Below, piece after piece: positions 149 to 58,812 of a stretch of 64,000 nucleotides of DNA. Both the position numbers and the translations under genes were made by a program. Numbering within the stretch: position 1 is the stretch's first letter; each line of letters opens with the position of its first letter. This DNA comes from Candidatus Omnitrophota bacterium. GTDB lineage: Bacteria > Omnitrophota > Gorgyraeia > Zapsychrales > JAHFFX01. The notes under the pieces were generated by a model. The model was not told the DNA's origin. It saw nothing but the letters and a program-made list of their open reading frames with translations, and did not search any database. The stretch covers positions 14,424 through 78,423 of the forward strand of contig JAHFFW010000009.1 of NCBI GenBank assembly GCA_023247725.1. Reading direction: 5' to 3'.

Positions 149-2389
149 TTACTGCGGCCGCTTTTCCAGCGTTTCCAGTTCTTTGAGATACTGATGCGTG
201 TTTCTATAATCGCTCTTTATGTCTTCGACTGCAAGAAATTTTTCTTTGGCCGCGGAATATTTTTTGTCCAAGTACAAGACCATGCCTTCTCGGTACATTT
301 TTTCGACGAGTTTTTCGCGTGGGTCATGGGTGGTCGGTGCGGAATTGGGCTCGGACAGGGACGGGGTTTCTTGTTTACTCTGCGGTGAGGATTGCCCACG
401 AGGCAGGGAAGGCTCACGGTTTGTCTCTGGCATCGGCACGGCTGATTCTTCAGATACAGAAGCGGCCGGCTGGGATTTTTTTTCAGCGGCCTTGAGCGCT
501 TGTTCCAAAGTTTGAGAACGCCCTTCCGATTGTTCGGCTTTTTGTTTGCGCCGGGCTTCCTTTTCGGCCATGGCCTTTTGTTTTTGTTCCGCTTTTTTTG
601 CCAAGGCCTGGCGCTTCCTTTGTTTTTCTTTTAAGCCTTTCTCTTTTTGAGCTTGCCTTTCTCTCTGGATGTTTTCTTGCTGAGACTGTCGTTGTGTTTG
701 AGCTTTTTGCCGTAATTCCTCTTCGTGGGCCTTTTTTCGGGCTTCGGCTTTTTCAGCCTGCGCTTTTTGTTTTGACGCCTCTTTCTCGGCTTTGGCTTTT
801 TGCTCAAGTTCGGCCTTTTCAGCCTGCGCTTTCTTTTGGGTTTCGGTCCTTTCGGCCAAAATATGCTCACGCTCTTCTTCTTTTTGCGCCTGTATCTTTT
901 GCCGATTTTCCTCTTGTTGAGCCAAGGTCTTTTGGCGTATTGCTTCTTTTTCCTTCAAAGCCCGCCGGAGAGCTTCTTCTTTTTCGGCCTTAACCTTCTG
1001 CCGTCGTTCTTCTTCCTGGGCGAGGGTCTTCTGGTGAAGCTGTTCTTTCTCAACCAAGGCCTCTTGTCGAATCTTTTCTTTTTTGGCTAATTCTTTTTTC
1101 CGCTGTTCATCTTTCTGAGTTCGGATCTTTTCCTGTCCGGCCATTTGTATCTGACGCAATTTTTCTTTCTCTTGACGGACCTGTTCGCGTTCTTTTTGTT
1201 GATGAGCCAGGAAGCGCGCGCGTTCTTTTTGCCGAGCGGCTTCTGCCTCTTCTTTAAACCGTTTATCTTCTAGTAATTTTTTCTGGCGTTCTGCTTTTTC
1301 CTTTTGCAAGGCCAGGCGCTGTTGTTCGGCTTCCTTGAGTGCAGGGCGTTTCTCCTTGCGCCTGGCTGTCTCTTCGACAAAAAGATTGGGCTGCTTGGCT
1401 CGAATCAGTCCCAGATAGCGCTGCGTCAATTTGTAATCGGGATCATCGGCGCTGACCTGTGCAAATTTCTGTTTGGCTTCGCTATATTTTTCGTGATTAA
1501 AAAGATAAATGGCATAAGCGTATTTGTCTTCCATTTCGTTGCGAATAATCTTTTTGGGAGGAACATCGAATTTCACCTGATCCAATTCTTTAAAAAGATC
1601 AGGCTGTCCCTCCTTCGGTTGCGAGGCGACCGTCGCGGGAGCAGGCTTATCCAATTCCTTGGCAATCCTCTTTAAGTAATCCTCGGTTTTCTGATAGCCC
1701 GGTTGCAATCGTTCAATATCCTCAAAAAGGGCCTGGGCTTTTTTCCAATCCTTCTCTAAAAAAAGGTCCACGGCCGCAGTGTAAAGCTTTTCTAAACCCG
1801 AAGAATAATTTTCCTGCAAATTTTCCCGTTCAGCGGCCAATTCTTGTTTGCGGGCATTGATATCGGCGAGCACAAGTTCTTCGGCTTCGGGTTTTCCCTC
1901 CTCAACCGCAGAATCTGGTTCTGGAGATGTCACGAAAGTCGGATTATCAACGGCCCGTCCTTCCGGAGGAACATTTTGCCCGGTCGTTTGCTTTTCTTCG
2001 CGAACCTGTTTGAGGAATTCCTGCGTGCGATGGTCTGCTTCGGTGGATACGGACTGGGGGGGCTGTTTTTCTTCACTGAATTTCTGCTCGATCCGGGCGA
2101 GGTATTTCCTGGTGGACTTGTATTCCGGAAGCATTTGGTCGGCCTGCAAAAATTTTTCTTTGGCCTCGGCTAAACGATTGGTTTTATAAAGGCTGACCGC
2201 TTCTTGATAAATAGCCTGAACCTCGCGAACCGTATCTTGATTCTGGCCTTTACCCGAAGCAAGGCTATCGGCCACATAGGACCAACTGAGCGGCGCAATG
2301 AACACACTCATGGTCAGAAAAATAACAGTGCTCATCATCTTCCTAAAACTGCTGCGTCGATGGAAAGGCATAAACGGCTCCGAGATCAT
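149..2389 (-). CDS. Secreted K/E/Q-rich coiled-coil protein with about four TPR-like modules (hypothetical)
   Basis: 746-aa ORF. A signal-peptide-like stretch begins at Met18 (MMSTVIFLTMSVFIAPLSWSYVA). Repeated Y..A..LY....Y.EA...F modules resemble TPR. A long KEK/RQK low-complexity coiled-coil core follows. The start could be 2338. Confidence 0.5.
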   Translation of the reverse strand: MISEPFMPFHRRSSFRKMMSTVIFLTMSVFIAPLSWSYVADSLASGKGQNQDTVREVQAIYQEAVSLYKTNRLAEAKEKFLQADQMLPEYKSTRKYLARIEQKFSEEKQPPQSVSTEADHRTQEFLKQVREEKQTTGQNVPPEGRAVDNPTFVTSPEPDSAVEEGKPEAEELVLADINARKQELAAERENLQENYSSGLEKLYTAAVDLFLEKDWKKAQALFEDIERLQPGYQKTEDYLKRIAKELDKPAPATVASQPKEGQPDLFKELDQVKFDVPPKKIIRNEMEDKYAYAIYLFNHEKYSEAKQKFAQVSADDPDYKLTQRYLGLIRAKQPNLFVEETARRKEKRPALKEAEQQRLALQKEKAERQKKLLEDKRFKEEAEAARQKERARFLAHQQKEREQVRQEKEKLRQIQMAGQEKIRTQKDEQRKKELAKKEKIRQEALVEKEQLHQKTLAQEEERRQKVKAEKEEALRRALKEKEAIRQKTLAQQEENRQKIQAQKEEEREHILAERTETQKKAQAEKAELEQKAKAEKEASKQKAQAEKAEARKKAHEEELRQKAQTQRQSQQENIQRERQAQKEKGLKEKQRKRQALAKKAEQKQKAMAEKEARRKQKAEQSEGRSQTLEQALKAAEKKSQPAASVSEESAVPMPETNREPSLPRGQSSPQSKQETPSLSEPNSAPTTHDPREKLVEKMYREGMVLYLDKKYSAAKEKFLAVEDIKSDYRNTHQYLKELETLEKRPQ

Positions 2390-2491
2390 GAAATGGTTTA
2401 AAGAAAGGAGTTTGACTTTTACTTTAAGACTTTGATCGTAACGACATTACCACAAGTATGCCATAACTAACACTTAACACACAATTTTTCT

Positions 2492-3787
2492 TTAAGGATG
2501 TGTGCCTTTGCGGAAACACGCATTCTGAACGCAAATAGGATTTATATGAAAAAGGTAACGATTTTTCGCAATCCAGGCATACACCCAAGGCCCCATCAGG
2601 CCTGTTCCCGGAAAATAAAAAAGGATGATGCAAGGGTAAAGCATGGGCAACAGCAGGGACAATCGGCGGAAGGCAAAAAATCCGCCCGAAAGCCGGCCGT
2701 CGGGTTCAATCAAATACAGCTGACTCGCAGCCTTCGCATGATTCAAATCGGGATGAAGCAAGGTCAAATCTTCCATCGTATGGAAGTCCCTCATCTGTAA
2801 ACGCCCCCAAAGATCCATGATTTCGAGATGCCGGACACTCAGACGGCAAAAATTGCATTGGCCATCAAAAACGACAATGGAGCGTTTGGCCTGGAGGTTC
2901 AATTTCCTTCTGACTTCGATCCTTTCAAGAATTTTTTCCGGATTAATGAATAACAACATCTGCGGAGGAAACAGGAAAAAGAAAATGGCCGGCACATCTA
3001 ACGTCAGCAACAACATCAAATGAAAAATAAATCCCCAGATGATCCCGGAACGCCGAGTCGCCGGAAAAAACAGCAAAAATGGCAGGAGGAATTCCGTGGA
3101 GAAAATAAAAATTCCCGTCCAGTAGCAGAGGGCTGGATGAACCGCCAGAAAATCCCGCAAAAGAAAGTTTTTGGTCGATCCTTCGTCAGGATAAAGCATC
3201 AAATAATAAAGCGGGTTATCTTTGATCCAATTGCCTTCCGGATAAATTTTGTATAAGGCCGTAAAGAAAAACGTCGCGGCCAGCTGAATCTGCAGTAACC
3301 GCTGGATAAAATAGGGTCGAGGAGCCTTATAGGCATTGGGATCACGCCTTCTTAAGGCATCGACGGAGAAATAATCTCCCGGATAAGGCGTCAGGCACAC
3401 CAGAAAGAGCGTCACCAAAAGCAGATCCCAGGCCAAAGACGAGCCAATATAAAAATCATTGAGGGCATAAAAATAAAGTAAGGATCCAAATAATATCCAG
3501 CCGCTTGGCTGGGTGTAGCACCCGAGCAAAAAAAGCAACCAGCTGCAAAAAAGCACGGCCAACATCAAGATGATCAACCAGTCCGGACTTTGATCCACGA
3601 GATTGAGAAAATCCACCGGGAAAAAATTGGCATTGTACGTTTTAAAAGCCCCGTGGAGATAATGTTCGCGAAAATGAAAAAAGGATGGACAGACATGCAA
3701 AAAGGTTGCGACCGCCACGGCAATCCGAAATAAGGATAGGCTCAGTGTCGGGCGTTCCACTAAAAATAGCCGGTGCCAAAGATTCAT
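2492..3787 (-). CDS. HTTM-domain (vitamin K-dependent gamma-carboxylase-like) membrane protein fused to a C-terminal DCC-family (DUF393) thiol-disulfide oxidoreductase domain
   Basis: The N-terminal half is polytopic membrane protein typical of HTTM. The C-terminus carries VVFDGQCNFCRLSV, which is the FDGxCxxC DCC motif. The start was moved to Met13 (MNLWHRL), which gives an ATGA overlap with the upstream gene. The track ORF extends to 3823. Confidence 0.6.
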   Translation of the reverse strand: MNLWHRLFLVERPTLSLSLFRIAVAVATFLHVCPSFFHFREHYLHGAFKTYNANFFPVDFLNLVDQSPDWLIILMLAVLFCSWLLFLLGCYTQPSGWILFGSLLYFYALNDFYIGSSLAWDLLLVTLFLVCLTPYPGDYFSVDALRRRDPNAYKAPRPYFIQRLLQIQLAATFFFTALYKIYPEGNWIKDNPLYYLMLYPDEGSTKNFLLRDFLAVHPALCYWTGIFIFSTEFLLPFLLFFPATRRSGIIWGFIFHLMLLLTLDVPAIFFFLFPPQMLLFINPEKILERIEVRRKLNLQAKRSIVVFDGQCNFCRLSVRHLEIMDLWGRLQMRDFHTMEDLTLLHPDLNHAKAASQLYLIEPDGRLSGGFFAFRRLSLLLPMLYPCIILFYFPGTGLMGPWVYAWIAKNRYLFHINPICVQNACFRKGTHP

Positions 3788-4416
3788 GGAGTCAGGCTTT
3801 CTTTGGGGAAGATTTGCCGGCAACGAAAAATTCCGGCCTCTTCATAAATATGGGGTTGGCGCGAAAGCGATCGGTATCGCCGCAAGGCAACGACAAAATC
3901 ATCAAATTCTGGAAAGCGCCGATCCATCATTCGGCAAAAACTGGGGGCGGTCTCGCGATCGGCAATGGCGCTCAAGACTCCCCGATGGGTATTATCGTAA
4001 AATAAGGTTCGGTTCTGGATGATCTTGTGGGGATTTAATTCATAGAGCTTCAAATCCTTGACCCCATAAACGACAAAGTGGGCAAAGGTGTCATCCAGGT
4101 GCAGAAACATGATAGGCCCGGCCGGCGGGAAAAGGAATTGATTGACCGGCAAATGCGCCGCGGCCCGGGGGAAATGACGCTGGATGAATGGCCGAAGCAG
4201 CATGAGCCGGGTGTTATTATAAAAATAAACGATCAGCCAGATGAGGACGAAGAGGGTGATGAAGCGGTCACGGACAGCCCGGTTGCGGGCAAGATTGACG
4301 ACAACAATGGGGGGAATGGTGAGGGTATAAACCCAGTAAACTGGCAATTTGAAAATCAAAAAAAACCAGCCGAAGAAAAATATGACCCCACCGACATATC
4401 GGGATATAGCACTCAT
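3784..4416 (-). CDS. Hypothetical membrane protein (about 3 N-terminal TM helices plus a soluble domain)
   Basis: 210-aa ORF translationally coupled on both sides by ATGA overlaps at 4413-4416 and 3784-3787. No recognisable family. Confidence 0.45.
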   Translation of the reverse strand: MSAISRYVGGVIFFFGWFFLIFKLPVYWVYTLTIPPIVVVNLARNRAVRDRFITLFVLIWLIVYFYNNTRLMLLRPFIQRHFPRAAAHLPVNQFLFPPAGPIMFLHLDDTFAHFVVYGVKDLKLYELNPHKIIQNRTLFYDNTHRGVLSAIADRETAPSFCRMMDRRFPEFDDFVVALRRYRSLSRQPHIYEEAGIFRCRQIFPKESLTP

Positions 4417-5894
4417 TGATTTTCATCATGCTCCCCAAAAACTTCGGCGGTAAAAATTTCCATGATCGTATTGGGATCCATCCAGGCCTTCGGGGGCAGA
4501 CCGGCTTTTTGCGCACATAAGACCGATAAAAAAGTGGCCTTGTCCCAGCCGGTTTCGGTTGCCACCTGCGGCAAAAATAATCCCTGATGCATCGAGCCCT
4601 GGCTGACAATCACGCCGTGTTTGCCCAATTCAATTTCATCAATCGAATGAATCCGATGCGGAACCGATAAAACCGAGACCTCCACATCGATATCGCTCAG
4701 TTCTTCCTGCTTTAACGGATCAAACCGGGGATCGCGGGTCGCTGCCGAAACCGCCATATCGCGGACCGTCAGATACAAAGGTTCCCTCCCTATCACTTGA
4801 CCGATGCAGCCGCGCAATTCTCCCTTTTTTCTAATCGTCACAAAGGCACCCTGGGTTTTCAATAAAGCATCCTCTTTGGTCTGGAACTCGGGAATTTTCT
4901 GGGAACGGACAAAGGATTCAATTGTCTCGCGGGCGATTTTCAATAACTCCTTCTTTTGTTCAGGGGTCAAGGCGCCGGCCGCCTTTTGATTATTTTCTGC
5001 GGCCGGCGTCGTGGACGGATGGAATATAACAGAACAATATCCGACGACGCGAAATTTATCTCCGGATGTATCGCCAGAATTGCCATATCGCAAAACTTCT
5101 GCTGTCCAATGTCGCCGTTCGGCTAGCGCAAGGGCGGTCGCGACACCCATAAATCCACACATCTCCATTGTCCCGGAGATGTTTCCATTCCAGAATTCTT
5201 CCACGTCTCCCTTTTCAATGGCCTTGAGTGTGCCGGCATCCATGGCGCGAGCCACCGAATCCGGATGGTAATGCGACATATCGGTGGAAATAACCATCAA
5301 GACATCCTTGCGCTCGCCAATGAGTTTATCGAGGGCCAGCGCCAACTCCTCGATCACCTCAGGATTCGGTTGTCCCATCAGAATCGGAACCAATTTAAAA
5401 TCTTTAAAGGTCTGCTGCAGAAAGGGCAATTCCACCTCGAGGGCATGCTCGCGTTCATAAACCTCCGGCTGAAAATGAAAGTTGGGGCTCTCCGCCAGAA
5501 GCCTTTGGGTGAATTCATCGTCGACTGGAACAATCCCCAGCGGGGTTTTGAATCCCCCCTCTTTCCAGACGGAGATCCCGGAAAACGGGAAAAAGTGGCT
5601 AGGCGCAATGACGATGATGGTGGAATACTGGCCAGCGCTCACCGCGCGAAAACTGTAGGCCGCGACCGGCCCGGAATACGGATAACCCGCATGCGGGGCA
5701 ATGACCATCGGTAAAGGCTGTTCCAAAGGCTTTTGACCGGATTGGTCAAAAAATGTTTGGATTTGCTTCACCAGTTCCTTCGGATTATCGTTGTAAAATT
5801 GGCCACTCACGTTTGGTTCTTTGATGAGCGGTTCAGCGTGCGAATAAGAACATGTCCCCATCATCATGGCCCCAACTAAGCAAAGGATTTTCAT
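4413..5894 (-). CDS. Memo-like (AmmeMemoRadiSam system protein B) - AMMECR1 (protein A) fusion with an N-terminal signal peptide
   Basis: Memo motifs VIAPHAGYPYSG and ISTDMSHY are in the N-terminal half. AMMECR1 motifs GAFVTIRKKGELRGCIGQ, RDPRFDP and GKHGVIVSQG..GLFLPQV are in the C-terminal half. The N-terminus MKILCLVGAMMMGTCSYSHA looks like a cleavable signal peptide. Confidence 0.7.
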   Translation of the reverse strand: MKILCLVGAMMMGTCSYSHAEPLIKEPNVSGQFYNDNPKELVKQIQTFFDQSGQKPLEQPLPMVIAPHAGYPYSGPVAAYSFRAVSAGQYSTIIVIAPSHFFPFSGISVWKEGGFKTPLGIVPVDDEFTQRLLAESPNFHFQPEVYEREHALEVELPFLQQTFKDFKLVPILMGQPNPEVIEELALALDKLIGERKDVLMVISTDMSHYHPDSVARAMDAGTLKAIEKGDVEEFWNGNISGTMEMCGFMGVATALALAERRHWTAEVLRYGNSGDTSGDKFRVVGYCSVIFHPSTTPAAENNQKAAGALTPEQKKELLKIARETIESFVRSQKIPEFQTKEDALLKTQGAFVTIRKKGELRGCIGQVIGREPLYLTVRDMAVSAATRDPRFDPLKQEELSDIDVEVSVLSVPHRIHSIDEIELGKHGVIVSQGSMHQGLFLPQVATETGWDKATFLSVLCAQKAGLPPKAWMDPNTIMEIFTAEVFGEHDENQ

Positions 5895-6334
5895 AAGGGT
5901 TGATTGGTTTTTGAAAAATAACGGTCAAGACTAAAAAAGGCCGTCCGCTCAATGCGAATCCGAAGATAAGCGGTGATTGTCCAGAGAATGATGTCCATGA
6001 GGAATGTCACCGGTAGAGGAAAAGACCAGCGGGAACCAAAACATCCGCACTCTTCTAAAGGCAGGCGGCGAATCAATGCCTGTCCGACGATCAAAAGAAA
6101 ACCCAAAATCATGATCAAGACCCCGCGCAGGGTCCATTCCAGCCACAAACCCAGGATGAGAAACACCCCTAAAATCAGTTCGATCCAAGGCATGACCCGG
6201 GCGGCCGACTCCTCCGCAAATGGCGGCAGGATCTGATAATTTTGAATCACATACAAAAAATTCTGATAAGGGAAAAGCAGTTTTTCCCCGCCGGAAGCGA
6301 CAAATAACAAACCCAGCAGGATTCTTAGGATCAC
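5891..6334 (-). CDS. MauE/DoxX-like 4-TM membrane protein with a CGCFG motif
   Basis: 147-aa hydrophobic ORF. It has the conserved EECGCFG motif seen in the MauE (methylamine utilisation) and DoxX-type thiol-redox membrane protein families. ATGA overlap with the downstream gene. Confidence 0.45.
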   Translation of the reverse strand: MILRILLGLLFVASGGEKLLFPYQNFLYVIQNYQILPPFAEESAARVMPWIELILGVFLILGLWLEWTLRGVLIMILGFLLIVGQALIRRLPLEECGCFGSRWSFPLPVTFLMDIILWTITAYLRIRIERTAFFSLDRYFSKTNQPL

Positions 6335-6996
6335 TAAGGCATTGATGGCAATTCTCCCAGACGCGTTTTCAATTCCGATTCCAATGATTTGATCCCGACA
6401 AACATTTGATCGTTAATAAAATAAGTCGGGGTGGACTGAATCCCTAAGGCCACGCCATTCTCTTTTTCGCGAAGAATCACCGATTTGACCTCATCATTGG
6501 TCAGGCATACCTCTAATTTCAGTTTATCCAGCCCGACGGCGGTGCCGATTTCCTGAAAGATGGGATCGGCATTGATGAGCCCCTTCCAATCATTCTGCCG
6601 GGCAATCAGAAGATCATGAAAAGGCCAGAATTTTCCCTGACGGGCGGCGCATTCTGCGTAACGGGCACAAAGCTGGGCGTGTTGATGCCCGTCCAATGGG
6701 AAATATTTCATTTGCAGATAAAGTTTTTTGGGGTAGGCCGCGTAATATTGATTGAGCATGGCGACCCCGCGGGCGCAGGCAGGGCATTGAAAATCGATGT
6801 ACTCGACGATTTTGACCGGGGCATTGGGATCGCCTTTGGTGCGCATCCGACTGACATCTTTGGGTCCTTGGCTTAAATATCCTTTTAAAAGATTGATGAT
6901 GACGATGAGGAGAATGCATAAAATAACGATCAAAACAGTGGTATTTTGTTTCTTTTGAATCGCATTCTTGGCTGGTGGGTTGGAAGCCTTCGGCAT
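6334..6996 (-). CDS. DsbA-like thioredoxin-fold thiol:disulfide oxidoreductase, membrane-anchored
   Basis: N-terminal TM anchor (TTVLIVILCILLIVIINLL). CPAC active site in YIDFQCPACARG. DsbA-like length of 220 aa. First gene of the coupled operon. Confidence 0.65.
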   Translation of the reverse strand: MPKASNPPAKNAIQKKQNTTVLIVILCILLIVIINLLKGYLSQGPKDVSRMRTKGDPNAPVKIVEYIDFQCPACARGVAMLNQYYAAYPKKLYLQMKYFPLDGHQHAQLCARYAECAARQGKFWPFHDLLIARQNDWKGLINADPIFQEIGTAVGLDKLKLEVCLTNDEVKSVILREKENGVALGIQSTPTYFINDQMFVGIKSLESELKTRLGELPSMP

Positions 6997-7039
6997 AAAA
7001 AAAGTCTCCCGCGGTGGGAAAACTAAAATCTCATAAGAT

Positions 7040-7110
7040 TTTTTAAGCGATTCTTGCTGATCGTGGAAGGCATTCTAGCACAAAAGAAAGGGGGAGTAAA
7101 ACGATTGATC
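7040..7110 (-). promoter_or_regulatory. Putative sigma70-type promoter of the dsbA-like operon
   Basis: On the minus strand there is a TTTACT, a 17-nt spacer, TGcTAGAAT (-10 at about 7077-7072), and about 70 nt of 5' UTR before the ATG at 6996. Confidence 0.25.
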
Positions 7111-7138
7111 AATGAAACATGCTGCGAATCAAAGCAGA

Positions 7139-7176
7139 GCGCCCCGCCCCACAGAAATTTTGCGGGGCGGGGCGCT
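7139..7176 (-). terminator. GC-rich hairpin, probable terminator downstream of the small Met-rich ORF
   Basis: Perfect inverted repeat agcgccccgcccc / ggggcggggcgct with a 12-nt loop. It lies about 35 nt after the stop at 7211. The flanking U-tract is only modest. Confidence 0.4.
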
Positions 7177-7210
7177 TCTCGTGAACTCCTTCAAAATCTT
7201 CGTGGCAATA

Positions 7211-7387
7211 TTAGCGACGATACATATTCATCTTCATCATGGTGTTACCCATCATGCCGCCTTCTTCATTCATCATATTGCCCATTTCTTCATTATTCAT
7301 GTCCCAATCCATATGGGAGGCATGCGAGATGCCTAAGAAACAAAATCCAATAAGCACGGCTGCCGCTAGCGTTAATCCATATTTCAT
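7211..7387 (-). CDS. Unannotated small secreted Met/Asn/Glu-rich peptide (58 aa)
   Basis: Hand translation gives MKYGLTLAAAVLIGFCFLGISHASHMDWDMNNEEMGNMMNEEGGMMGNTMMKMNMYRR*. AGGAGA lies 7 nt upstream of the ATG. A signal peptide and probable ...SHA cleavage site are present. The mature part has 11 Met in about 35 residues. A His-rich plus-strand ORF in the track is its antisense shadow. Confidence 0.5.
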   Translation of the reverse strand: MKYGLTLAAAVLIGFCFLGISHASHMDWDMNNEEMGNMMNEEGGMMGNTMMKMNMYRR

Positions 7388-7552
7388 TAGTTCTTCTCCT
7401 TTAAGTTAACAATAAAAAATAAGCGCGAATAAATCCAAAAATTTTTATCCTTTAGCTCTCACCTCCCCGGCCTCCTTCTCCCTTTAGGCATAAGACAAAC
7501 ACATTGTTGAAGTTTAAAGGCGTTTAAAAAGAAAATCAAGGGAAAACTTTCT

Positions 7553-9208
7553 CTAAAGTTGTGGGCCCGCGGCCACCAGGGCTTGGCCGTGCGGCGTGTC
7601 GGTGAAGACTTTGAAGTTCTCAATGAACATCCCGGCCAGCTTGCGCAGCATTTGGTCGTACGCGTTTTTATCGGTCCAGCTGTCTCTGGGATTTAAGGCT
7701 GTCTGGACTCCCGGAAGGCTTTTGGGAATCCGCAAATTGAAAATCGGGAGATTGCCATATCCATCCTTTTCCAAAGTATTATTGAATATCGCATCAATAA
7801 CGGTCCGATTGTCCTGGATTGCAATCCTTTTGCCAACCCCGTAAGACCCCCCCACCCAACCGGTATTGATCAAATAGACTTTCGTGCGGTGCTCATCCAT
7901 TTTTCGGCCAAGAATTTCGGCATAACGGGTCGGATGCAGAGTCAAAAATGCCTTTCCAAAGCAGGCGGAGAATGTGGCCTTGGGCTCGGTGACGCCGAGC
8001 TCAGTCCCCGCCACCTTTGCCGTGTAACCACTCAAAAAGTGGTACATCGCTTGCTCGCGGGTTAATTCCGCAATGGGCGGAAGAACTCCAAAGGCGTCAC
8101 AGGTTAAAAAGATGACATCCTGAGGATGGCCGCCTTTAGAAACTGGCAAGACAATATTGTCAATGTGGTCAAGAGGGTAAGAAACCCGCGTATTTTCCGT
8201 TTTCTGGCCAGAGGCAAAGTCAACTTTTCCGGATTCATCGACCACGACACTTTCCAGGAGAGAATTAACCTTGATGGCATTGTAAATCTGCGGTTCCTTC
8301 TCCCGGGATAGGTTAATGCATTTAGCGTAACAACCTCCTTCAAAATTGAAAATACCCTCATGATCCCAGCCATGCTCATCATCGCCAATCAGACGGCGTT
8401 TGGGATCGGTTGATAGGGAGGTCTTGCCCGTGCCAGAAAGGCCAAAAAAAAGCGCCGTGTCTCCTTTTTGACCCATATTGGCCGAACAGTGAAATGATCC
8501 AATCCCTTTGAGGGGCAGAAAATAGTTCATGATGGAGAAAATCCCTTTTTTGATTTCGCCTCCATACCAAGTTCCGCCAATGCAGGTCATTCGCTGGGCG
8601 AGGTGAAATGCCACAAAAACTTCCGAGCGCAGCCCATGCTGGGCATAATCAGGACAGATGGCCTTGCAGGCATTGAGGATGGTCCAGTCAGGTTTGAAAT
8701 TTTTTAATTCGCTTTCGCTGGGACGGATAAACATATTTTTAAAGAAGTGCGCCATCCATGCAACCTCGGTCACCAGACGAATCGACAACCGCGTTGCCGG
8801 ATTGGCACCGCAGAAGCCATCCATCACGTAAAGTTTTTTGCCGCTCAATTGATAGACGCAGATTTCTTGCAAATGATTCCACGTGGTTTCACTGATCGGT
8901 TGGTTGTCGGAACCTTCTTTGCGGCCGCTTGCCCACCAGACCGTATCATGACTGGAACGCTCATCGACGATATATTTATCTTTGGGCGAGCGTCCGGTGA
9001 ATTTGCCGGTATCGACCGCCACGGCCCCGAACTCCGTCACTACCCCCCGCTCATAACCGGTGAGGGCGGGATCGGTTTCATGCAGGAAGAGTTCTTCATA
9101 GGAGAGGTTATAAAATATTTCGCTCCAGCCCGTGATACCAATCCTTTTGAGCTCCCCCCCAGGGGAAATGGTCTCCACGACACGATTGCCAAAGATATTG
9201 AGTTTCAT
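7553..9208 (-). CDS. pckA: Phosphoenolpyruvate carboxykinase (ATP)
   Basis: 551 aa. Has the kinase-1a motif [13 protein letters not shown] and conserved PckA blocks (DDEHGW, GGCYAK). Confidence 0.9.
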
Positions 9209-37734: not shown

Positions 37735-38955
37735 TTAAAGATAAACCAGGTCTTCGGCATAATCGAGCGACAAAAACAGCAGCATGTAATCGCGCAAATG
37801 CCGGGTCAACAAAAAGTTGTTGCGGATGTGCTCCCGGCCATTTTCGCCCAAGCGTTTGGCAAAGGCCGGACTATTGAGAATTTGTTTTAAGGCAAAGGCC
37901 GCGCCTTCGACGGAATTGCACAACATTCCGGAATATTTATGCTTGATTTGCAAAGGAATGCCGCCGACATTGCCGGCCACGACCGGCTTCACTTTCCAAA
38001 GCGCCTCGGAAACCGTCAATCCAAATCCTTCCTTTAAAGATTTCTGCATGATGACGTCCGATCCCCGCTGCAAGGCGTTCACCTCAAAATCATTCTGCGG
38101 CAATAAAAGGATGTGAATGTCCGGATTGTCCGCAGCCTTCTCCTTGACCTCGGCCAGGACCTGTAATCCTTCCGGGTCATCGGTCGCCGTGCCGCCGGCC
38201 AGAATGAGCTGACAATCAATATATTTTCGCACCATCAAAAAGGCCTCAATGACGCCAACCGGATCCTTGAGACGGTCGAAACGCGAAATCTGCGTGATGA
38301 TGGGTTTGTCGCGAGAGATTTGGTATTTGGCCAAAACCCTGTCCACGTCTTCGGGACTAAGCTCCCGGTTCTTTTCACTCAATGGATCGATCGACGGGGA
38401 AATAAGCGCCTGGCGAATTGGAAGCTGTTGGGAAAAACTCGGCGCAGAAAAGACCGAGGCGTCATAACGGACAATGAATTCCTTAAGAAACGCCCAGACG
38501 ATCGGATGCGGTTTGGAGACATCAATGTGACAGCGCCAGATCCATTTGTTCTGTCCTTTTTTCTGAATCAAGGCAATGGGCTGCGGATCATGAATAAAGA
38601 CAATGTCATAATCCGTGTTCATCTCCGCAATATTTTTACGGCTGGTTTCCATAAAAATCTCAAAATCCGCCGGAGTTACTTCATCCGGCCGGCCGTGCAA
38701 AACATTATGGAATTTCTTGGTCACTTGGTAAAACTGGTCTCCCCCTTTGATGACCTCCCACTTCGTGTTGATCCCCATTTCGCCCAAAAGCGGCACCATA
38801 CGGCTGAGGATTTCCGCCACTCCACCTCCGACGGCGGTCGAATTGACATGAAGGACATGCTTTTGGGCCAGTCGTTCAGCCAAGAGCTTTAAATCGTCGA
38901 TGATGGCTTGCCCCACGACCGGAATATATTCATCTAATTTGGCGGTCGCATTCAT
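37735..38955 (-). CDS. treT: Trehalose glycosyltransferring synthase TreT (GT4)
   Basis: Blocks characteristic of archaeal/bacterial TreT: VNSTAVGGGVAEIL, WRCHIDVSKP, SPSIDPLSEKN, IITQISRFDRLKDP, EGFGLTVSEALWKVKPVVAGNVGGIPLQI. Confidence 0.75.
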   Translation of the reverse strand: MNATAKLDEYIPVVGQAIIDDLKLLAERLAQKHVLHVNSTAVGGGVAEILSRMVPLLGEMGINTKWEVIKGGDQFYQVTKKFHNVLHGRPDEVTPADFEIFMETSRKNIAEMNTDYDIVFIHDPQPIALIQKKGQNKWIWRCHIDVSKPHPIVWAFLKEFIVRYDASVFSAPSFSQQLPIRQALISPSIDPLSEKNRELSPEDVDRVLAKYQISRDKPIITQISRFDRLKDPVGVIEAFLMVRKYIDCQLILAGGTATDDPEGLQVLAEVKEKAADNPDIHILLLPQNDFEVNALQRGSDVIMQKSLKEGFGLTVSEALWKVKPVVAGNVGGIPLQIKHKYSGMLCNSVEGAAFALKQILNSPAFAKRLGENGREHIRNNFLLTRHLRDYMLLFLSLDYAEDLVYL

Positions 38956-39683
38956 TTTCGCCTCAATCTTTTCTCAACGATCGAGATGATGATTCGCCGC
39001 AAATCTTCCAACGTGTGAGTATAAGGATCCAGATTGGAAAGTTTCCGGGCAAGATCGGTTTCGCCAAACTCCTGTTCGATCCAGGCGGAAAAATCATTCG
39101 TCTTTTTTTCCAAACGCAGACGAGCTTCGAAAACATGGAAGTAAATGGAATCAACCGTAATTTTCTTGAGGATTTCAATAAATTCCGCCAAGTCCGTGGC
39201 AAAATCATGGGTTGGTAAGATGAAACTCAGCGATTTCATGAAATAAAACTCTTCGCCATCATTGACAAACTTTTTTTGCGAGAGAGGATTCTGTTGTACA
39301 TAGTTGGAAATGACCTCGATCAAACGGTTGCGCAGGTCGCGAATCGTAGAAAATTGGACGACATCAATGCTGGAGATGCCCTCGCCCAATTTCTTCTCGC
39401 CCAAAACCTCGGTCGTCCAGTAGGCAAAATCATTGGGCGGCTCAGGATTCAGGTATTGGTGTTGTTGCAGGAACCGGTGCGTATGATGATAAATAGAAGA
39501 ACCCGGAACCTCTTTAAGATGTTCCAGAAGTTCCGTCAGATTGGCGGCCTTAAGCCCAGTCAACACGGTCAAATGCAGCCGAGTATAAAAATGAAAAGGC
39601 AATTTGGCCTTCTTCAATCCGCTTTCTTTCTCGTCGGTTTTATTTAATAGGGATGCGTCGGAAGCCATGGAGGGATCTCCCAT
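38952..39683 (-). CDS. Hypothetical protein translationally coupled to treT
   Basis: 243 aa. ATGA overlap with treT. No recognisable family. Confidence 0.45.
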   Translation of the reverse strand: MGDPSMASDASLLNKTDEKESGLKKAKLPFHFYTRLHLTVLTGLKAANLTELLEHLKEVPGSSIYHHTHRFLQQHQYLNPEPPNDFAYWTTEVLGEKKLGEGISSIDVVQFSTIRDLRNRLIEVISNYVQQNPLSQKKFVNDGEEFYFMKSLSFILPTHDFATDLAEFIEILKKITVDSIYFHVFEARLRLEKKTNDFSAWIEQEFGETDLARKLSNLDPYTHTLEDLRRIIISIVEKRLRRK

Positions 39684-40717: not shown

Positions 40718-41833
40718 TCAATGCATTTGGTGATGGGTTATTTTTTCCTCATACAACTTTAGGGTCCTGTTCACCATCTCCTCGGCAGAAAATTTTTCGG
40801 TCACCACCGCTCGACCCTCCTGAGCCAATTCCTTGGCCTTCTGCGGATTCTTCAATAGAAGGATGAGCGCTTGCGCCAGAATGGCAGGTTGTTCGACCGG
40901 AACTAACAGGCCGGTTTTCCCGTCATCGATGAGATTGATGAGTCCCCCCACTTTTGAAGCAATGACGGGGATTGCGCAGGCCTGAGCTTCCATGACGGAA
41001 ATGCCCAGCCCTTCCTGACGGGAAGGCATGACAAAAATATCCAGGGCTCCCAGAATTTCCCGAGATCGTCCGATGAGCGGGAAAAAAAGCACCTGTTTTT
41101 CCAGGTTTAAATCGTTGGTCAATCGTTTTAAGAATGGCAACTGGACTCCTTGCCCAACGACCAAAAGTTTCGCCGAAGGAAATTGCGCGATAACCTTGGG
41201 CATGGCTTTGATGAGAATATCAATCCCTTTGACCGGGGACAAGCGCGCAATGGTGCCCATGACCGGTCCTTCCTTGATCCGCAAAATTTGGCGAATCCGA
41301 CAACGGTCATCGGGGCTCGCTGGCGCAAATTCCTCAAGGTCAATCCCGTTCGCAATGACGTGCACACGCTGAGGCGCCACTCCCAAATCGTTCTGCAGAT
41401 GCTCACCCACCGCCGGACTTATCGCGATCGCCGCATCACCCCAAGCGGGAAATAAACGACGGCTCCATCGCGGTCGAAAAAAGCCATGACAGGTGGAAAC
41501 ATAGGGGCGTTTCGTCAGGCGTCCCAGGAATGTTCCCATGACCTGGGTCACGCGGGTTTGAGCATGGATGCAGTCGATGCGCTCATGGCGGATCAAATTT
41601 GTCAAAGGAGGCAGCGCAGTATAAATCTTGGGACTCAATTCTGATTTTGTCCGAATATTCATGCACCGGTGCACCGCGGCAGGCTTGAACTTTTCCAAAT
41701 CGACCAATCGATCTCCGCCGCTGGAAACGATCACCACCTCGTGCCCTTTCTTGATGAAGCCCTTCGTCAAGGTCAAAACATACTGCGTTATACCGCCGCT
41801 ATTAAAATGTGTGGTCAGAAAAAGGATCTTCAT
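40718..41833 (-). CDS. GT4 (group 1) glycosyltransferase, LPS core
   Basis: Starts at MKILFLTTHF.SGG. C-terminal EGLGISVMEAQACAIPVIASKVGG. ATGA overlap with the upstream gene. Confidence 0.7.
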   Translation of the reverse strand: MKILFLTTHFNSGGITQYVLTLTKGFIKKGHEVVIVSSGGDRLVDLEKFKPAAVHRCMNIRTKSELSPKIYTALPPLTNLIRHERIDCIHAQTRVTQVMGTFLGRLTKRPYVSTCHGFFRPRWSRRLFPAWGDAAIAISPAVGEHLQNDLGVAPQRVHVIANGIDLEEFAPASPDDRCRIRQILRIKEGPVMGTIARLSPVKGIDILIKAMPKVIAQFPSAKLLVVGQGVQLPFLKRLTNDLNLEKQVLFFPLIGRSREILGALDIFVMPSRQEGLGISVMEAQACAIPVIASKVGGLINLIDDGKTGLLVPVEQPAILAQALILLLKNPQKAKELAQEGRAVVTEKFSAEEMVNRTLKLYEEKITHHQMH

Positions 41834-48266: not shown

Positions 48267-49127
48267 CTATGCCCGCGGATGCGCCTTGTCGTAAACGCTT
48301 TTCAGCCGCTCGGTAGTTACGTGAGTATAAATCTGAGTCGTGGATAAATTCACATGGCCTAAAAGTTCCTGGACACAACGCAGATCCGCCCCCCGATTGA
48401 GCAGATGCGTGGCAAAGGAATGGCGCAGGACGTGCGGCGAAACATGATTGGCCAGGCTGGCGGCTTGCAGGTATTTCTGAGTGATATTGAGGATACTGCG
48501 GGTGGTGAGCCTCCCTCCCTGCTTATTTAAAAAAAGAGCGGTCGTGGACGACTGGCGCTGTTCGAGATATTCTTGAATGGCTTGCAGGGCCTGGTTGCCG
48601 ATGGGAAGCAACCGTTCTTTTTTTCCCTTGCCTCTCACTTTAACGATATTGCCAATCGCATCGAGGTCTTCCACATTCAAACCCACAAGCTCGCTCACCC
48701 GCATACCCGTCGAATACAACGTTTCAAAGATGGCCCGGTCCCTTTTTCCGGAGAGCTTGTCGGCAGGCGGACTTTCGATGAGTTGAACCATCTCGCCTTC
48801 GCTCAAAAATTTAGGAAGCTTCTTGTCCAACTTCGGGGTTTGCAACAATAACGCTGGATTTTCTTTCATATGATTTTCCCGCATCAAAAATTTGAAAAAA
48901 CTGCGCAGGCTGGACAATTTCCGGGCGAGGCTCCGGGGCTTTAATTCCTTTGTCCGCAAGTGCGCCAGGTATTTTCTTAATGCCAGGTAATCAATATGGT
49001 CAAGGGCTGGATCTTGATGAAAGGCAAAAAACTCCTCAAGATCAAGCCGATAATTGAGCAAGGTATGCTCCGAATAATTTTTTTCGATTTCGAGATAGGA
49101 AATGAATTTATCGACGTAGCGGTTCAT
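48267..49127 (-). CDS. Tyrosine recombinase XerC/XerD family
   Basis: Catalytic R..H.R.Y region: HVLRHSFATHLL...LLGHVNLSTTQIYTHV. N-terminal core-binding domain. Confidence 0.8.
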   Translation of the reverse strand: MNRYVDKFISYLEIEKNYSEHTLLNYRLDLEEFFAFHQDPALDHIDYLALRKYLAHLRTKELKPRSLARKLSSLRSFFKFLMRENHMKENPALLLQTPKLDKKLPKFLSEGEMVQLIESPPADKLSGKRDRAIFETLYSTGMRVSELVGLNVEDLDAIGNIVKVRGKGKKERLLPIGNQALQAIQEYLEQRQSSTTALFLNKQGGRLTTRSILNITQKYLQAASLANHVSPHVLRHSFATHLLNRGADLRCVQELLGHVNLSTTQIYTHVTTERLKSVYDKAHPRA

Positions 49128-57937: not shown

Positions 57938-58366
57938 CTATGAATCCTGATCCTGTAAGAAGCGCATAATCTCCTGCGAGAACTGTTGAAAATCGGCGAG
58001 GTCATTTTGTAGGTGTTTATAAACCAATTCCCAATTAATCCGACTGTATTCATGGACGATAAGATTTCTGAATTTAACGGCCTGTGAAAATCTTTCGGCA
58101 ATGGATAAGGAAATAATATTATGCTTGGCGAGCCCGGCGAAGATATCTTTCCCTTCCTGTGGTTTGGGAAGTTTCTTTTCACTGATAATCAATTCTCCGA
58201 TATCCATCGTGCTCTCCACCGCGACTTGAAAATATCTCAATATAGCTCCTTGAACCGTATGATCTTTGAGGATCTCTGGCAGTGAGAGTTTTTGATAGCC
58301 TTGCAAATACCTCGAGCACTCTTGCAAATGCTCCATCTTGGTCACTATGGAAATTTTAGCAATCAT
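57938..58366 (-). CDS. hepT: HepT-like HEPN toxin (DUF86)
   Basis: RNLIVHEY matches the Rx4HxY HEPN motif. 142 aa. ATGA overlap with the upstream MntA gene. Confidence 0.7.
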   Translation of the reverse strand: MIAKISIVTKMEHLQECSRYLQGYQKLSLPEILKDHTVQGAILRYFQVAVESTMDIGELIISEKKLPKPQEGKDIFAGLAKHNIISLSIAERFSQAVKFRNLIVHEYSRINWELVYKHLQNDLADFQQFSQEIMRFLQDQDS

Positions 58367-58812
58367 AAGATCCCCTCCCTGGCAATCCTGGCAATGGCAA
58401 GGTCGGCGTGGCGGCCGAAATAATACTGCTCATCATAAAACTGACTCATCACTCTCGCCTCAAAATGGATCCTCGTCCATTCGTTCTGACAAACCAGGAT
58501 TTCCCCTTCTCGGATCACATTGAACTTTAAAAATAATGGCGCATCATTGAGCACCACCAGATCCACAAAAGGAGAGCTGCGCCAGGGCCCTTGCAGTTGC
58601 CCGATCAAATCCAATCGCTTTTGCAAGCGTTGATCATTATCCAACGAGGGTGCCAGATACACCGCCAGATCCATATCGCTTCGTTGACTAACTTCCCGGC
58701 GTGCCACCGAACCGAACACATAGGCCACGATCACGGTGGGATCTTTCGAAAAGCCCTGCTTCGCCTTTTCTTTCAGTTGCTCTAGCCTTTGCTCGTAATC
58801 GTCCTCAGACAT
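58363..58812 (-). CDS. mntA: MntA-like nucleotidyltransferase antitoxin
   Basis: FGSVARREVSQRSDMDLAV matches the GSxAR...SDxDL minimal NTase motif. It is paired with HepT. Confidence 0.7.
   Translation of the reverse strand: MSEDDYEQRLEQLKEKAKQGFSKDPTVIVAYVFGSVARREVSQRSDMDLAVYLAPSLDNDQRLQKRLDLIGQLQGPWRSSPFVDLVVLNDAPLFLKFNVIREGEILVCQNEWTRIHFEARVMSQFYDEQYYFGRHADLAIARIAREGIL

Follow-up and report, generated by a model that had tools for sequence, protein, structure and literature searches.

One of the closest described counterparts of the peptide discussed here is MrpX of Azospira suillum PS, which is encoded in a yedYZ-mrpX operon and combines a signal peptide with 20% Met and many charged residues (PMC4436054). 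MrpX is rapidly oxidised by hypochlorite, scavenges it and is recycled by YedY/MsrP (PMC4436054), its function being carried by the Met side chains. A second group, SilE and PcoE, are disordered His/Met periplasmic proteins that act as metal 'molecular sponges' (PMC5008109); SilE has about 123 residues after signal removal and carries paired His/Met motifs of the forms MxxHxxxxxHxxM and HxxMxxxHxxM (PMC5008109). Motifs that offer thioethers only have also been described. MX1-2MX1-2M motifs are Cu(I)/Ag(I) sites according to Rubino et al. (2010), as that work is cited in PMC5008109, and thioether-only Mets motifs occur in the Ctr1 transporters and in the Met-rich inserts of the multicopper oxidases CueO/CopA (PMC12041951).

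In the 64-kb stretch of DNA that we analysed (hereafter the window) lies a short ORF that very probably encodes a real exported Met-rich peptide. Like MrpX, it would be a small exported peptide, very Met-rich, with many charged residues and no enzymatic domain, and in size, signal and a Met content of at least about 20% it is of the MrpX type (58 aa, Kyte-Doolittle means up to 2.7, a cleavage point SHA/S and a tail with 31% Met). However, msrP/yedY and msrQ/yedZ are absent beside it and from the whole 64 kb, it has no SigF/NrsF-type regulator, and it probably goes with pckA. When the two are compared by description, its Met content is 28-31% against 20% in MrpX, its charged fraction 20-26% against 44%, and it is Asn-rich.

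The likeness to SilE and PcoE is that of an exported, probably intrinsically disordered, Met-containing and Cys-free candidate, with a helical propensity predicted at low confidence. Unlike SilE, the mature peptide has 35-46 residues, at most one His (one in the window, none in its relative in locus L005) and no MxxH/HxxM repeats; there are no sil, pco or cus genes nearby, and Pfam, PDB and plasmid tblastn searches gave no similarity. As in the Mets motifs, the peptide has MxM/MxxM clusters with Gly, Asn and Asp between the Met residues, and MMKMNM (window) and MMNMDM (L005) fit this form. In Ctr1 and CueO such motifs form part of a much larger transporter or enzyme, whereas here the segment that carries the motif is the whole mature product. 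Compared with the bufferin-type Cu-binding RiPPs, the mature region has no Cys and the neighbouring operon has no MNIO (DUF692) enzyme.

The reading frame and its signal

The ORF starts with ATG, and its minus-strand translation is MKYGLTLAAAVLIGFCFLGISHASHMDWDMNNEEMGNMMNEEGGMMGNTMMKMNMYRR up to the stop codon (coordinates in Table 1). Its 35-aa tail after SHA/S contains 11 Met. None of the other ORFs of at least 25 aa in the window (786 in all) is as dense in Met, the runner-up having 7 in 35 residues, and shuffling the window 30 times gave a maximum of 7. A preliminary description of this DNA had proposed a 58-aa minus-strand ORF with an AGGAGA Shine-Dalgarno sequence at a 7-nt spacing, a signal peptide and a mature region with 11 Met. 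All of these were confirmed, including a hydrophobic N-terminus. It had also read the His-rich plus-strand ORFs at 7054-7353 as an antisense shadow of the peptide frame, and we agree, as CAT complements the ATG-rich frame there; the ORF at 7112-7336 is a shadow of the same kind. We considered the His-rich antisense ORF as a gene in its own right and rejected it: it is open in L005 too, but its start is not conserved and its frame crosses the terminator. The word "unannotated" in that description has to be dropped, since NCBI-, ENA- and Logan-derived sets already list the exact protein (P0001) as a predicted gene product without a name.

Table 1. Features at and around the peptide gene, in positions of the 64-kb window.
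Feature	Position	Strand	Details and source
Hydrophobic 210-aa protein between Memo-AMMECR1 and HTTM/DCC1	3784-4416	(-)	no Pfam or NCBIfam match
Putative dsbA operon promoter	7072..7100	(-)	TTTACT, 17 nt, TAGAAT with upstream TG (extended -10); promoter scan
Predicted intrinsic-terminator hairpin	7138..7176	(-)	16-bp perfect stem, 7-nt loop, then CUGCUUUGAUU; terminator scan
Met-rich peptide ORF, predicted to be exported	7211..7387	(-)	58 aa, stop codon included in coordinates; ORF list and translation
Predicted mature peptide, 35 aa	7214..7318	(-)	composition and motif scan
Predicted signal sequence, residues 1-23	7319..7387	(-)	MK, hydrophobic core with conserved FCFLG, SHA before Ser24
Shine-Dalgarno AGGAGA	7395..7400	(-)	7-nt spacer AGAACTA to ATG; read from sequence
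pckA, ATP-dependent PEP carboxykinase	7553..9208	(-)	Pfam PEPCK_ATP, E = 2.3e-208

The N-terminal region has the form of a Sec signal, with Lys at residue 2 and an 11-residue Kyte-Doolittle mean that peaks at 2.7 and afterwards drops below 0. Cleavage after SHA is predicted from the -3/-1 rule, and export likewise from sequence rules. A lipoprotein reading was rejected on the translations of the window and L005 peptides, in which Phe precedes the Cys and there is thus no lipobox. The L005 peptide has Pro at -3 of its predicted cleavage site, so it might remain membrane-anchored.

The predicted mature peptide contains 11 Met, 6 Asn, 4 Glu, 4 Gly, 2 Asp, 1 His and no Cys. Its C-terminal MMKMNM fits MX1-2MX1-2M, as do MESMDDM, MDDMMNM and MMNMDM in the L005 peptide. 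Both peptides are acidic and Cys-free, carry an export signal and contain 28-31% Met, with an MX1-2MX1-2M cluster towards the C-terminus. All that AF2 predicted was a helix over residues 27-57, at low confidence (mean pLDDT 66). When the two were tested for a helical Met face, the L005 peptide gave a significant result (p = 0.025) and the window peptide did not (p = 0.79). The peptide sequence gives no sign of an enzyme or a fold.

Relatives and evidence of selection

Homology searches, with the peptide alone and with a two-sequence profile as queries, returned very little. In a word-indexed search of 5.8 billion proteins the only matches were the peptide and its L005 orthologue, and a full HMMER scan of 1.84 billion cluster representatives gave, besides the peptide, just one repeat protein of 503 aa that is unrelated. 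Pfam, NCBIfam and PDB sequence searches with the peptide gave no meaningful match, and neither did tblastn against 72,556 plasmids give any, to which the low-complexity filter may contribute. The degenerate DNA pattern MKY-x11-FCFLG, run on metagenome contigs, yielded no Met-rich peptide among the at least 120 matches listed, and a genome-contig search with the Memo-AMMECR1 fusion gave one locus, cut by the contig start. The Rfam scan of the peptide region produced sub-threshold miRNA matches on the hairpin only, which are without meaning, and the whole 64-kb window holds no Rfam family and no tRNA. The peptide is thus an orphan small protein conserved by synteny, although its general kind, an exported Met-rich peptide, is known; in these searches it has no detectable homology to the characterised Met-rich examples.

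Relatives were instead reached through the neighbourhood: related loci were fetched via homologues of the downstream DsbA-like protein, and orthologues of the peptide were then recognised by synteny. In L005 (GCA_964372915.1) a 69-aa ORF, MKYALSLVSVVVVAFCFLGSPQAQDMMVPANMEEMNPVMNGTINAMTNAMTNAMESMDDMMNMDMNNEQ, occupies the same position between pckA and dsbA. It is preceded by AAGGAGA with a 7-nt spacer, has the MKY start and FCFLG core seen in the window, and its tail holds 13 Met in 46 aa. The two peptides have 25 residues in common, including MKY, FCFLG, N-x-E-E-M and the C-terminal MMxMxM, while their PckA proteins are 74% identical. The preliminary description had pointed to two EE pairs in the peptide; only one is conserved with L005.

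In the signal region the window and L005 agree at 13 of 23 residues, and 6 of the differences between them are synonymous. Identity at codon positions 1, 2 and 3 is 0.74, 0.74 and 0.35, and pN is 0.25 against a pS of 0.84 (synonymous sites being saturated), which is the mark of purifying selection on the peptide frame. A third relative comes from L012, a locus that opens mid-gene with a C-terminal fragment of the peptide, ending in MMDDTMNMEVNGEGY and its stop codon, just upstream of dsbA. This fragment matches the L005 C-terminus at 8 of 12 residues, four of the identical residues being written with different synonymous codons, and the alignment scores 46 against a maximum of 43 in 2000 composition-preserving shuffles. 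Among the loci compared, the L012 DsbA is the closest to that of L005. The extreme C-terminal ends of the three peptides differ (YRR, NEQ and EGY), and L001 and L002 show zero nucleotide differences in the peptide ORF. Conservation of the frame in relatives was the point on which the preliminary description had let the gene stand or fall, and the L005 orthologue, the L012 fragment and the codon-position pattern all favour a gene. Judged by these signs, we take the Met-rich ORF to be a real protein-coding gene.

Transcription unit, terminator and promoter

The 165-nt gap between pckA and the peptide in the window contains no terminator-like or promoter-like site in our terminator and promoter scan, and in L005 the peptide begins 43 nt past the pckA stop. 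The peptide stop codon lies about 34 nt upstream of a hairpin whose surroundings (7110-7260) fold at -63 kcal/mol with z = -5.05. An equivalent long hairpin is found 3' of the peptide in L005, and in L007 and L004, which lack the peptide, equivalent hairpins follow pckA directly. For this reason we read the hairpin as the predicted pckA terminator, which would end the pckA/peptide transcript; the position in the peptide-less relatives also places the peptide inside the pckA unit, upstream of its terminator. The preliminary description had offered a pckA/dsbA intergenic terminator as the explanation of the hairpin should the peptide not be a gene. Since the peptide gene sits between pckA and the pckA terminator, it is probably co-transcribed with pckA.

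On the far side of the hairpin is a putative promoter of the dsbA operon, which would mark the boundary and lie outside the peptide unit. In 9 of 11 loci (the window, L004, L005, L007, L009, L013, L014, L135 and L136) the motif T[AG]TGnTAn[AG]AT, often with a T-run before it, occurs at most 150 nt ahead of the dsbA start as called, and there are only 13 occurrences in 152 kb overall. The preliminary description had placed the peptide just upstream of a redox operon. The adjacency is real, but a terminator and a promoter separate the two, and the peptide gene in the window is, as predicted from these signals, transcriptionally insulated from the downstream dsbA-mauE-memo/AMMECR1-HTTM operon. 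In L012 fewer than 100 nt separate the peptide stop from dsbA, and neither a hairpin nor the promoter motif lies between them, so co-transcription with dsbA is possible there.

Two of the gene calls at this boundary deserve a remark. The L005 dsbA call (243 aa) starts 9 nt downstream of the promoter motif (L005 8001-8060), and its real start is probably the ATG at 8058, with GGAGAAG before it. The L004 dsbA call, at 274 aa, looks extended at its C-terminus in comparison with homologues of 209-220 aa.

Distribution and the neighbouring operon

In trees of DsbA, Memo-AMMECR1 and PckA, the window, L005, L012, L007, L013 and L004 form one clade. The peptide occurs in three of these six lineages (the window, L005 and L012), and it is absent from the pckA-dsbA gap of the other three. 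The five lineages examined outside the clade (L009/L010, L011, L014, L135 and L136) all lack it too, and the loci examined hold no further Met-rich ORFs. From this distribution the gene appears to be young or dispensable, with a fast-evolving mature part; the empty gap in half of the clade speaks for dispensability if the gene has not been relocated elsewhere. It is conceivable that a young gene arose here de novo, within one clade, from DNA 3' of pckA.

The operon itself is far more constant. It runs from a membrane-anchored DsbA (CPAC) through MauE/DoxX (CGC), a Memo-AMMECR1 fusion, the 210-aa membrane protein and an HTTM+DCC1 fusion to a TPR protein. Usually with pckA upstream, it is kept in all lineages examined, most of them without the peptide, and eight lineages have the operon and no peptide at this position (L004, L007, L009/L010, L011, L013, L014, L135 and L136). 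The co-localisation of peptide and HTTM operon, which the preliminary description had proposed to check, therefore fails in these eight. The dsbA and mauE genes look like a disulfide-forming pair, because a 2026 preprint reports that MauE proteins with a CXC motif can substitute for DsbB (10.64898/2026.03.05.709764). Among the called genes we detected no radical SAM partner such as the 'AmmeMemoRadiSam' set would include.

Several observations on this neighbourhood are of interest in their own right. The order pckA-dsbA-mauE/doxX-memo-AMMECR1-x-HTTM+DCC1 spans 149-9208 (-) in the window and recurs in L005, L007, L009, L011, L014, L135 and L136. These lineages share no more than about 50-70% identity in their Memo-AMMECR1 proteins. 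The slot of the 210-aa protein is filled by an unannotated ORF of 100-211 aa in every related operon, and a TPR protein and a DsbH/DUF255 thioredoxin often come after the operon. In L136 a PemK-family toxin and a small upstream ORF (3265-3800) lie directly upstream of dsbA, in the place that pckA takes elsewhere, and the pckA adjacency is therefore not universal. The pckA-dsbA-mauE-memo/AMMECR1-HTTM/DCC1 module is uncharacterised as a unit, and it is more intriguing than the peptide.

Discussion

The account that we put forward, though tentatively, is that of a lineage-restricted, Sec-exported, Cu(I)/Ag(I)-buffering peptide in the pckA unit. A lineage-restricted gene, read with pckA and insulated from the downstream dsbA operon, would give a small pre-peptide for export by the Sec pathway. 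Removal of the signal of about 23 residues would leave in the periplasm a 35-aa acidic, Cys-free and probably disordered peptide with about 31% Met. Its clustered thioethers, especially the conserved MMxMxM, could then serve as soft-ligand sites that bind or buffer Cu(I) or Ag(I). The cell is diderm, with a periplasm, as is shown by LPS biosynthesis genes in the window (LpxK, Kdo transferase and lipid A acyltransferase). Cu(I)/Ag(I) binding as the role of the peptide is possible, somewhat short of an even prospect, and is read from the chemistry of the Met motifs only.

Two alternatives we consider to be very improbable. One is that the ORF makes no functional protein. It would then be a chance ORF in intergenic DNA rich in ATG, or a leader peptide acting in cis that tunes the terminator and with it the read-through from pckA to dsbA. 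The ORF is indeed short, of low complexity, orphan and patchily distributed, and it stands directly upstream of a terminator as attenuator leaders do. However, its N-terminal 23 residues are conserved as protein while third codon positions are saturated, the Shine-Dalgarno spacing is kept in L005, and the L005 and L012 C-termini agree beyond what composition gives. As for a leader, the stop codon does not overlap the hairpin, and at its distance a terminating ribosome would be too far away to act; there is no conserved C-terminal arrest motif, the ends differing unlike those of arrest peptides, and the downstream genes are unrelated to Met supply. The other alternative, which the preliminary description had raised on account of the HTTM operon, makes the peptide a substrate or partner of the dsbA-mauE-memo/AMMECR1-HTTM/DCC1 system, for instance as a target of Glu gamma-carboxylation or some other modification. 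Wherever the peptide occurs, in three lineages, it adjoins the operon, N-x-E-E-M is conserved between the window and L005, and the L012 arrangement leaves a small opening for a functional link. Sec-signal RiPP precursors encoded beside DoxX-type proteins are known, and the window MauE/DoxX weakly matches HvfX, although below threshold (E = 0.024, 14.8 bits against a cutoff of 80). Against this, a substrate should co-occur and be co-transcribed with its enzymes, and here the operon is conserved in eight lineages without the peptide, while a strong terminator and a separate conserved promoter stand between the two in both the window and L005. Additionally, the mature peptide lacks Cys and so offers DsbA and MauE no target, a single EE pair is conserved, and no radical SAM or MNIO enzyme is present. 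The idea of a modification substrate is thus not supported. A broader version, in which the peptide is a natural client of the envelope module, Glu/Met-modified or metal-loaded, and the co-transcribed arrangement of L012 is ancestral, seems to us equally remote.

The choice between metal and oxidant is much closer. In an MrpX-like role the peptide would be a sacrificial antioxidant that takes up periplasmic oxidants (HOCl, chloramines, peroxides) as Met sulfoxide; a periplasmic Met sulfoxide reductase would afterwards reduce the peptide again, unless it is simply turned over. Its architecture is that of the Azospira suillum protein, being small, Met-rich, with a signal peptide and charged residues (PMC4436054), and envelope thiol-redox is the theme of its neighbourhood, with DsbA (CPAC), MauE (CGC), the thioredoxin-like DCC1 and, in relatives, DsbH-like proteins. 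However, MrpX is defined by its yedYZ(msrPQ)-mrpX operon, and MsrP, MsrQ, MsrA and MsrB are absent from the window and the related loci: Pfam found no Oxidored_molyb, Ferric_reduct or Msr family in the 59 longest ORFs of the window, and the gene tables of the related loci list none. The lower charged fraction also counts against an MrpX-like role, and probable co-transcription with pckA gives no hint of stress induction. We regard this role as rather doubtful, yet nearly as likely as Cu(I)/Ag(I) buffering, which we slightly favour because both the Mets motif, which is conserved, and the Met clusters with their Gly/Asn/Asp spacing resemble copper-handling segments. Copper binding had been suggested in the preliminary description as well. 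What holds of that suggestion is the conserved thioether-only MX1-2MX1-2M; the copper or silver homeostasis genes that might have accompanied it were not seen, as P-type ATPase, Cus, multicopper oxidase and CopC/D were all absent from the 64-kb window (Pfam scans of the 59 longest non-overlapping ORFs) and from the related loci (judged from their gene tables). Other points weigh against a metal role too. His is nearly absent from the peptide, unlike SilE/PcoE, half of the six lineages in its clade lack the gene in the pckA-dsbA gap, and the helical Met face is not significant in the window peptide. Known metal sponges are stress-induced, whereas this gene is probably co-transcribed with the housekeeping gene pckA. 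The gene context supports neither a metal nor an oxidant role.

If the peptide does bind Cu(I) or scavenge oxidants, it would be among the smallest stand-alone Met-only periplasmic buffers, in an uncultured lineage, and such peptides would arise independently of the MrpX and SilE/PcoE families. Fast-evolving, low-complexity small proteins of this type evade homology searches, and synteny alone reveals them. The conserved pckA-dsbA-mauE-memo/AMMECR1-HTTM/DCC1 module, for its part, should not be read via this peptide.

Other features of the window

The window (1-64000) is an unusually long co-directional stretch, with 58 of its 60 longest non-overlapping ORFs (90 aa or more) on the minus strand. 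The two on the plus strand are the shadow ORF at 7054-7353 and an unmatched 114-aa ORF at 41028-41372. Further along, a TreT-type trehalose synthase is paired with DUF5752 at 37735-39683 (-), and a HepT-like RNase forms a pair with a Pol-beta/MNT nucleotidyltransferase at 57938-58812 (-), which is type VII toxin-antitoxin-like and lies beside an SF0329-family gene. At 48267-49127 (-) a XerC/D-like tyrosine recombinase adjoins topoisomerase I and DprA.
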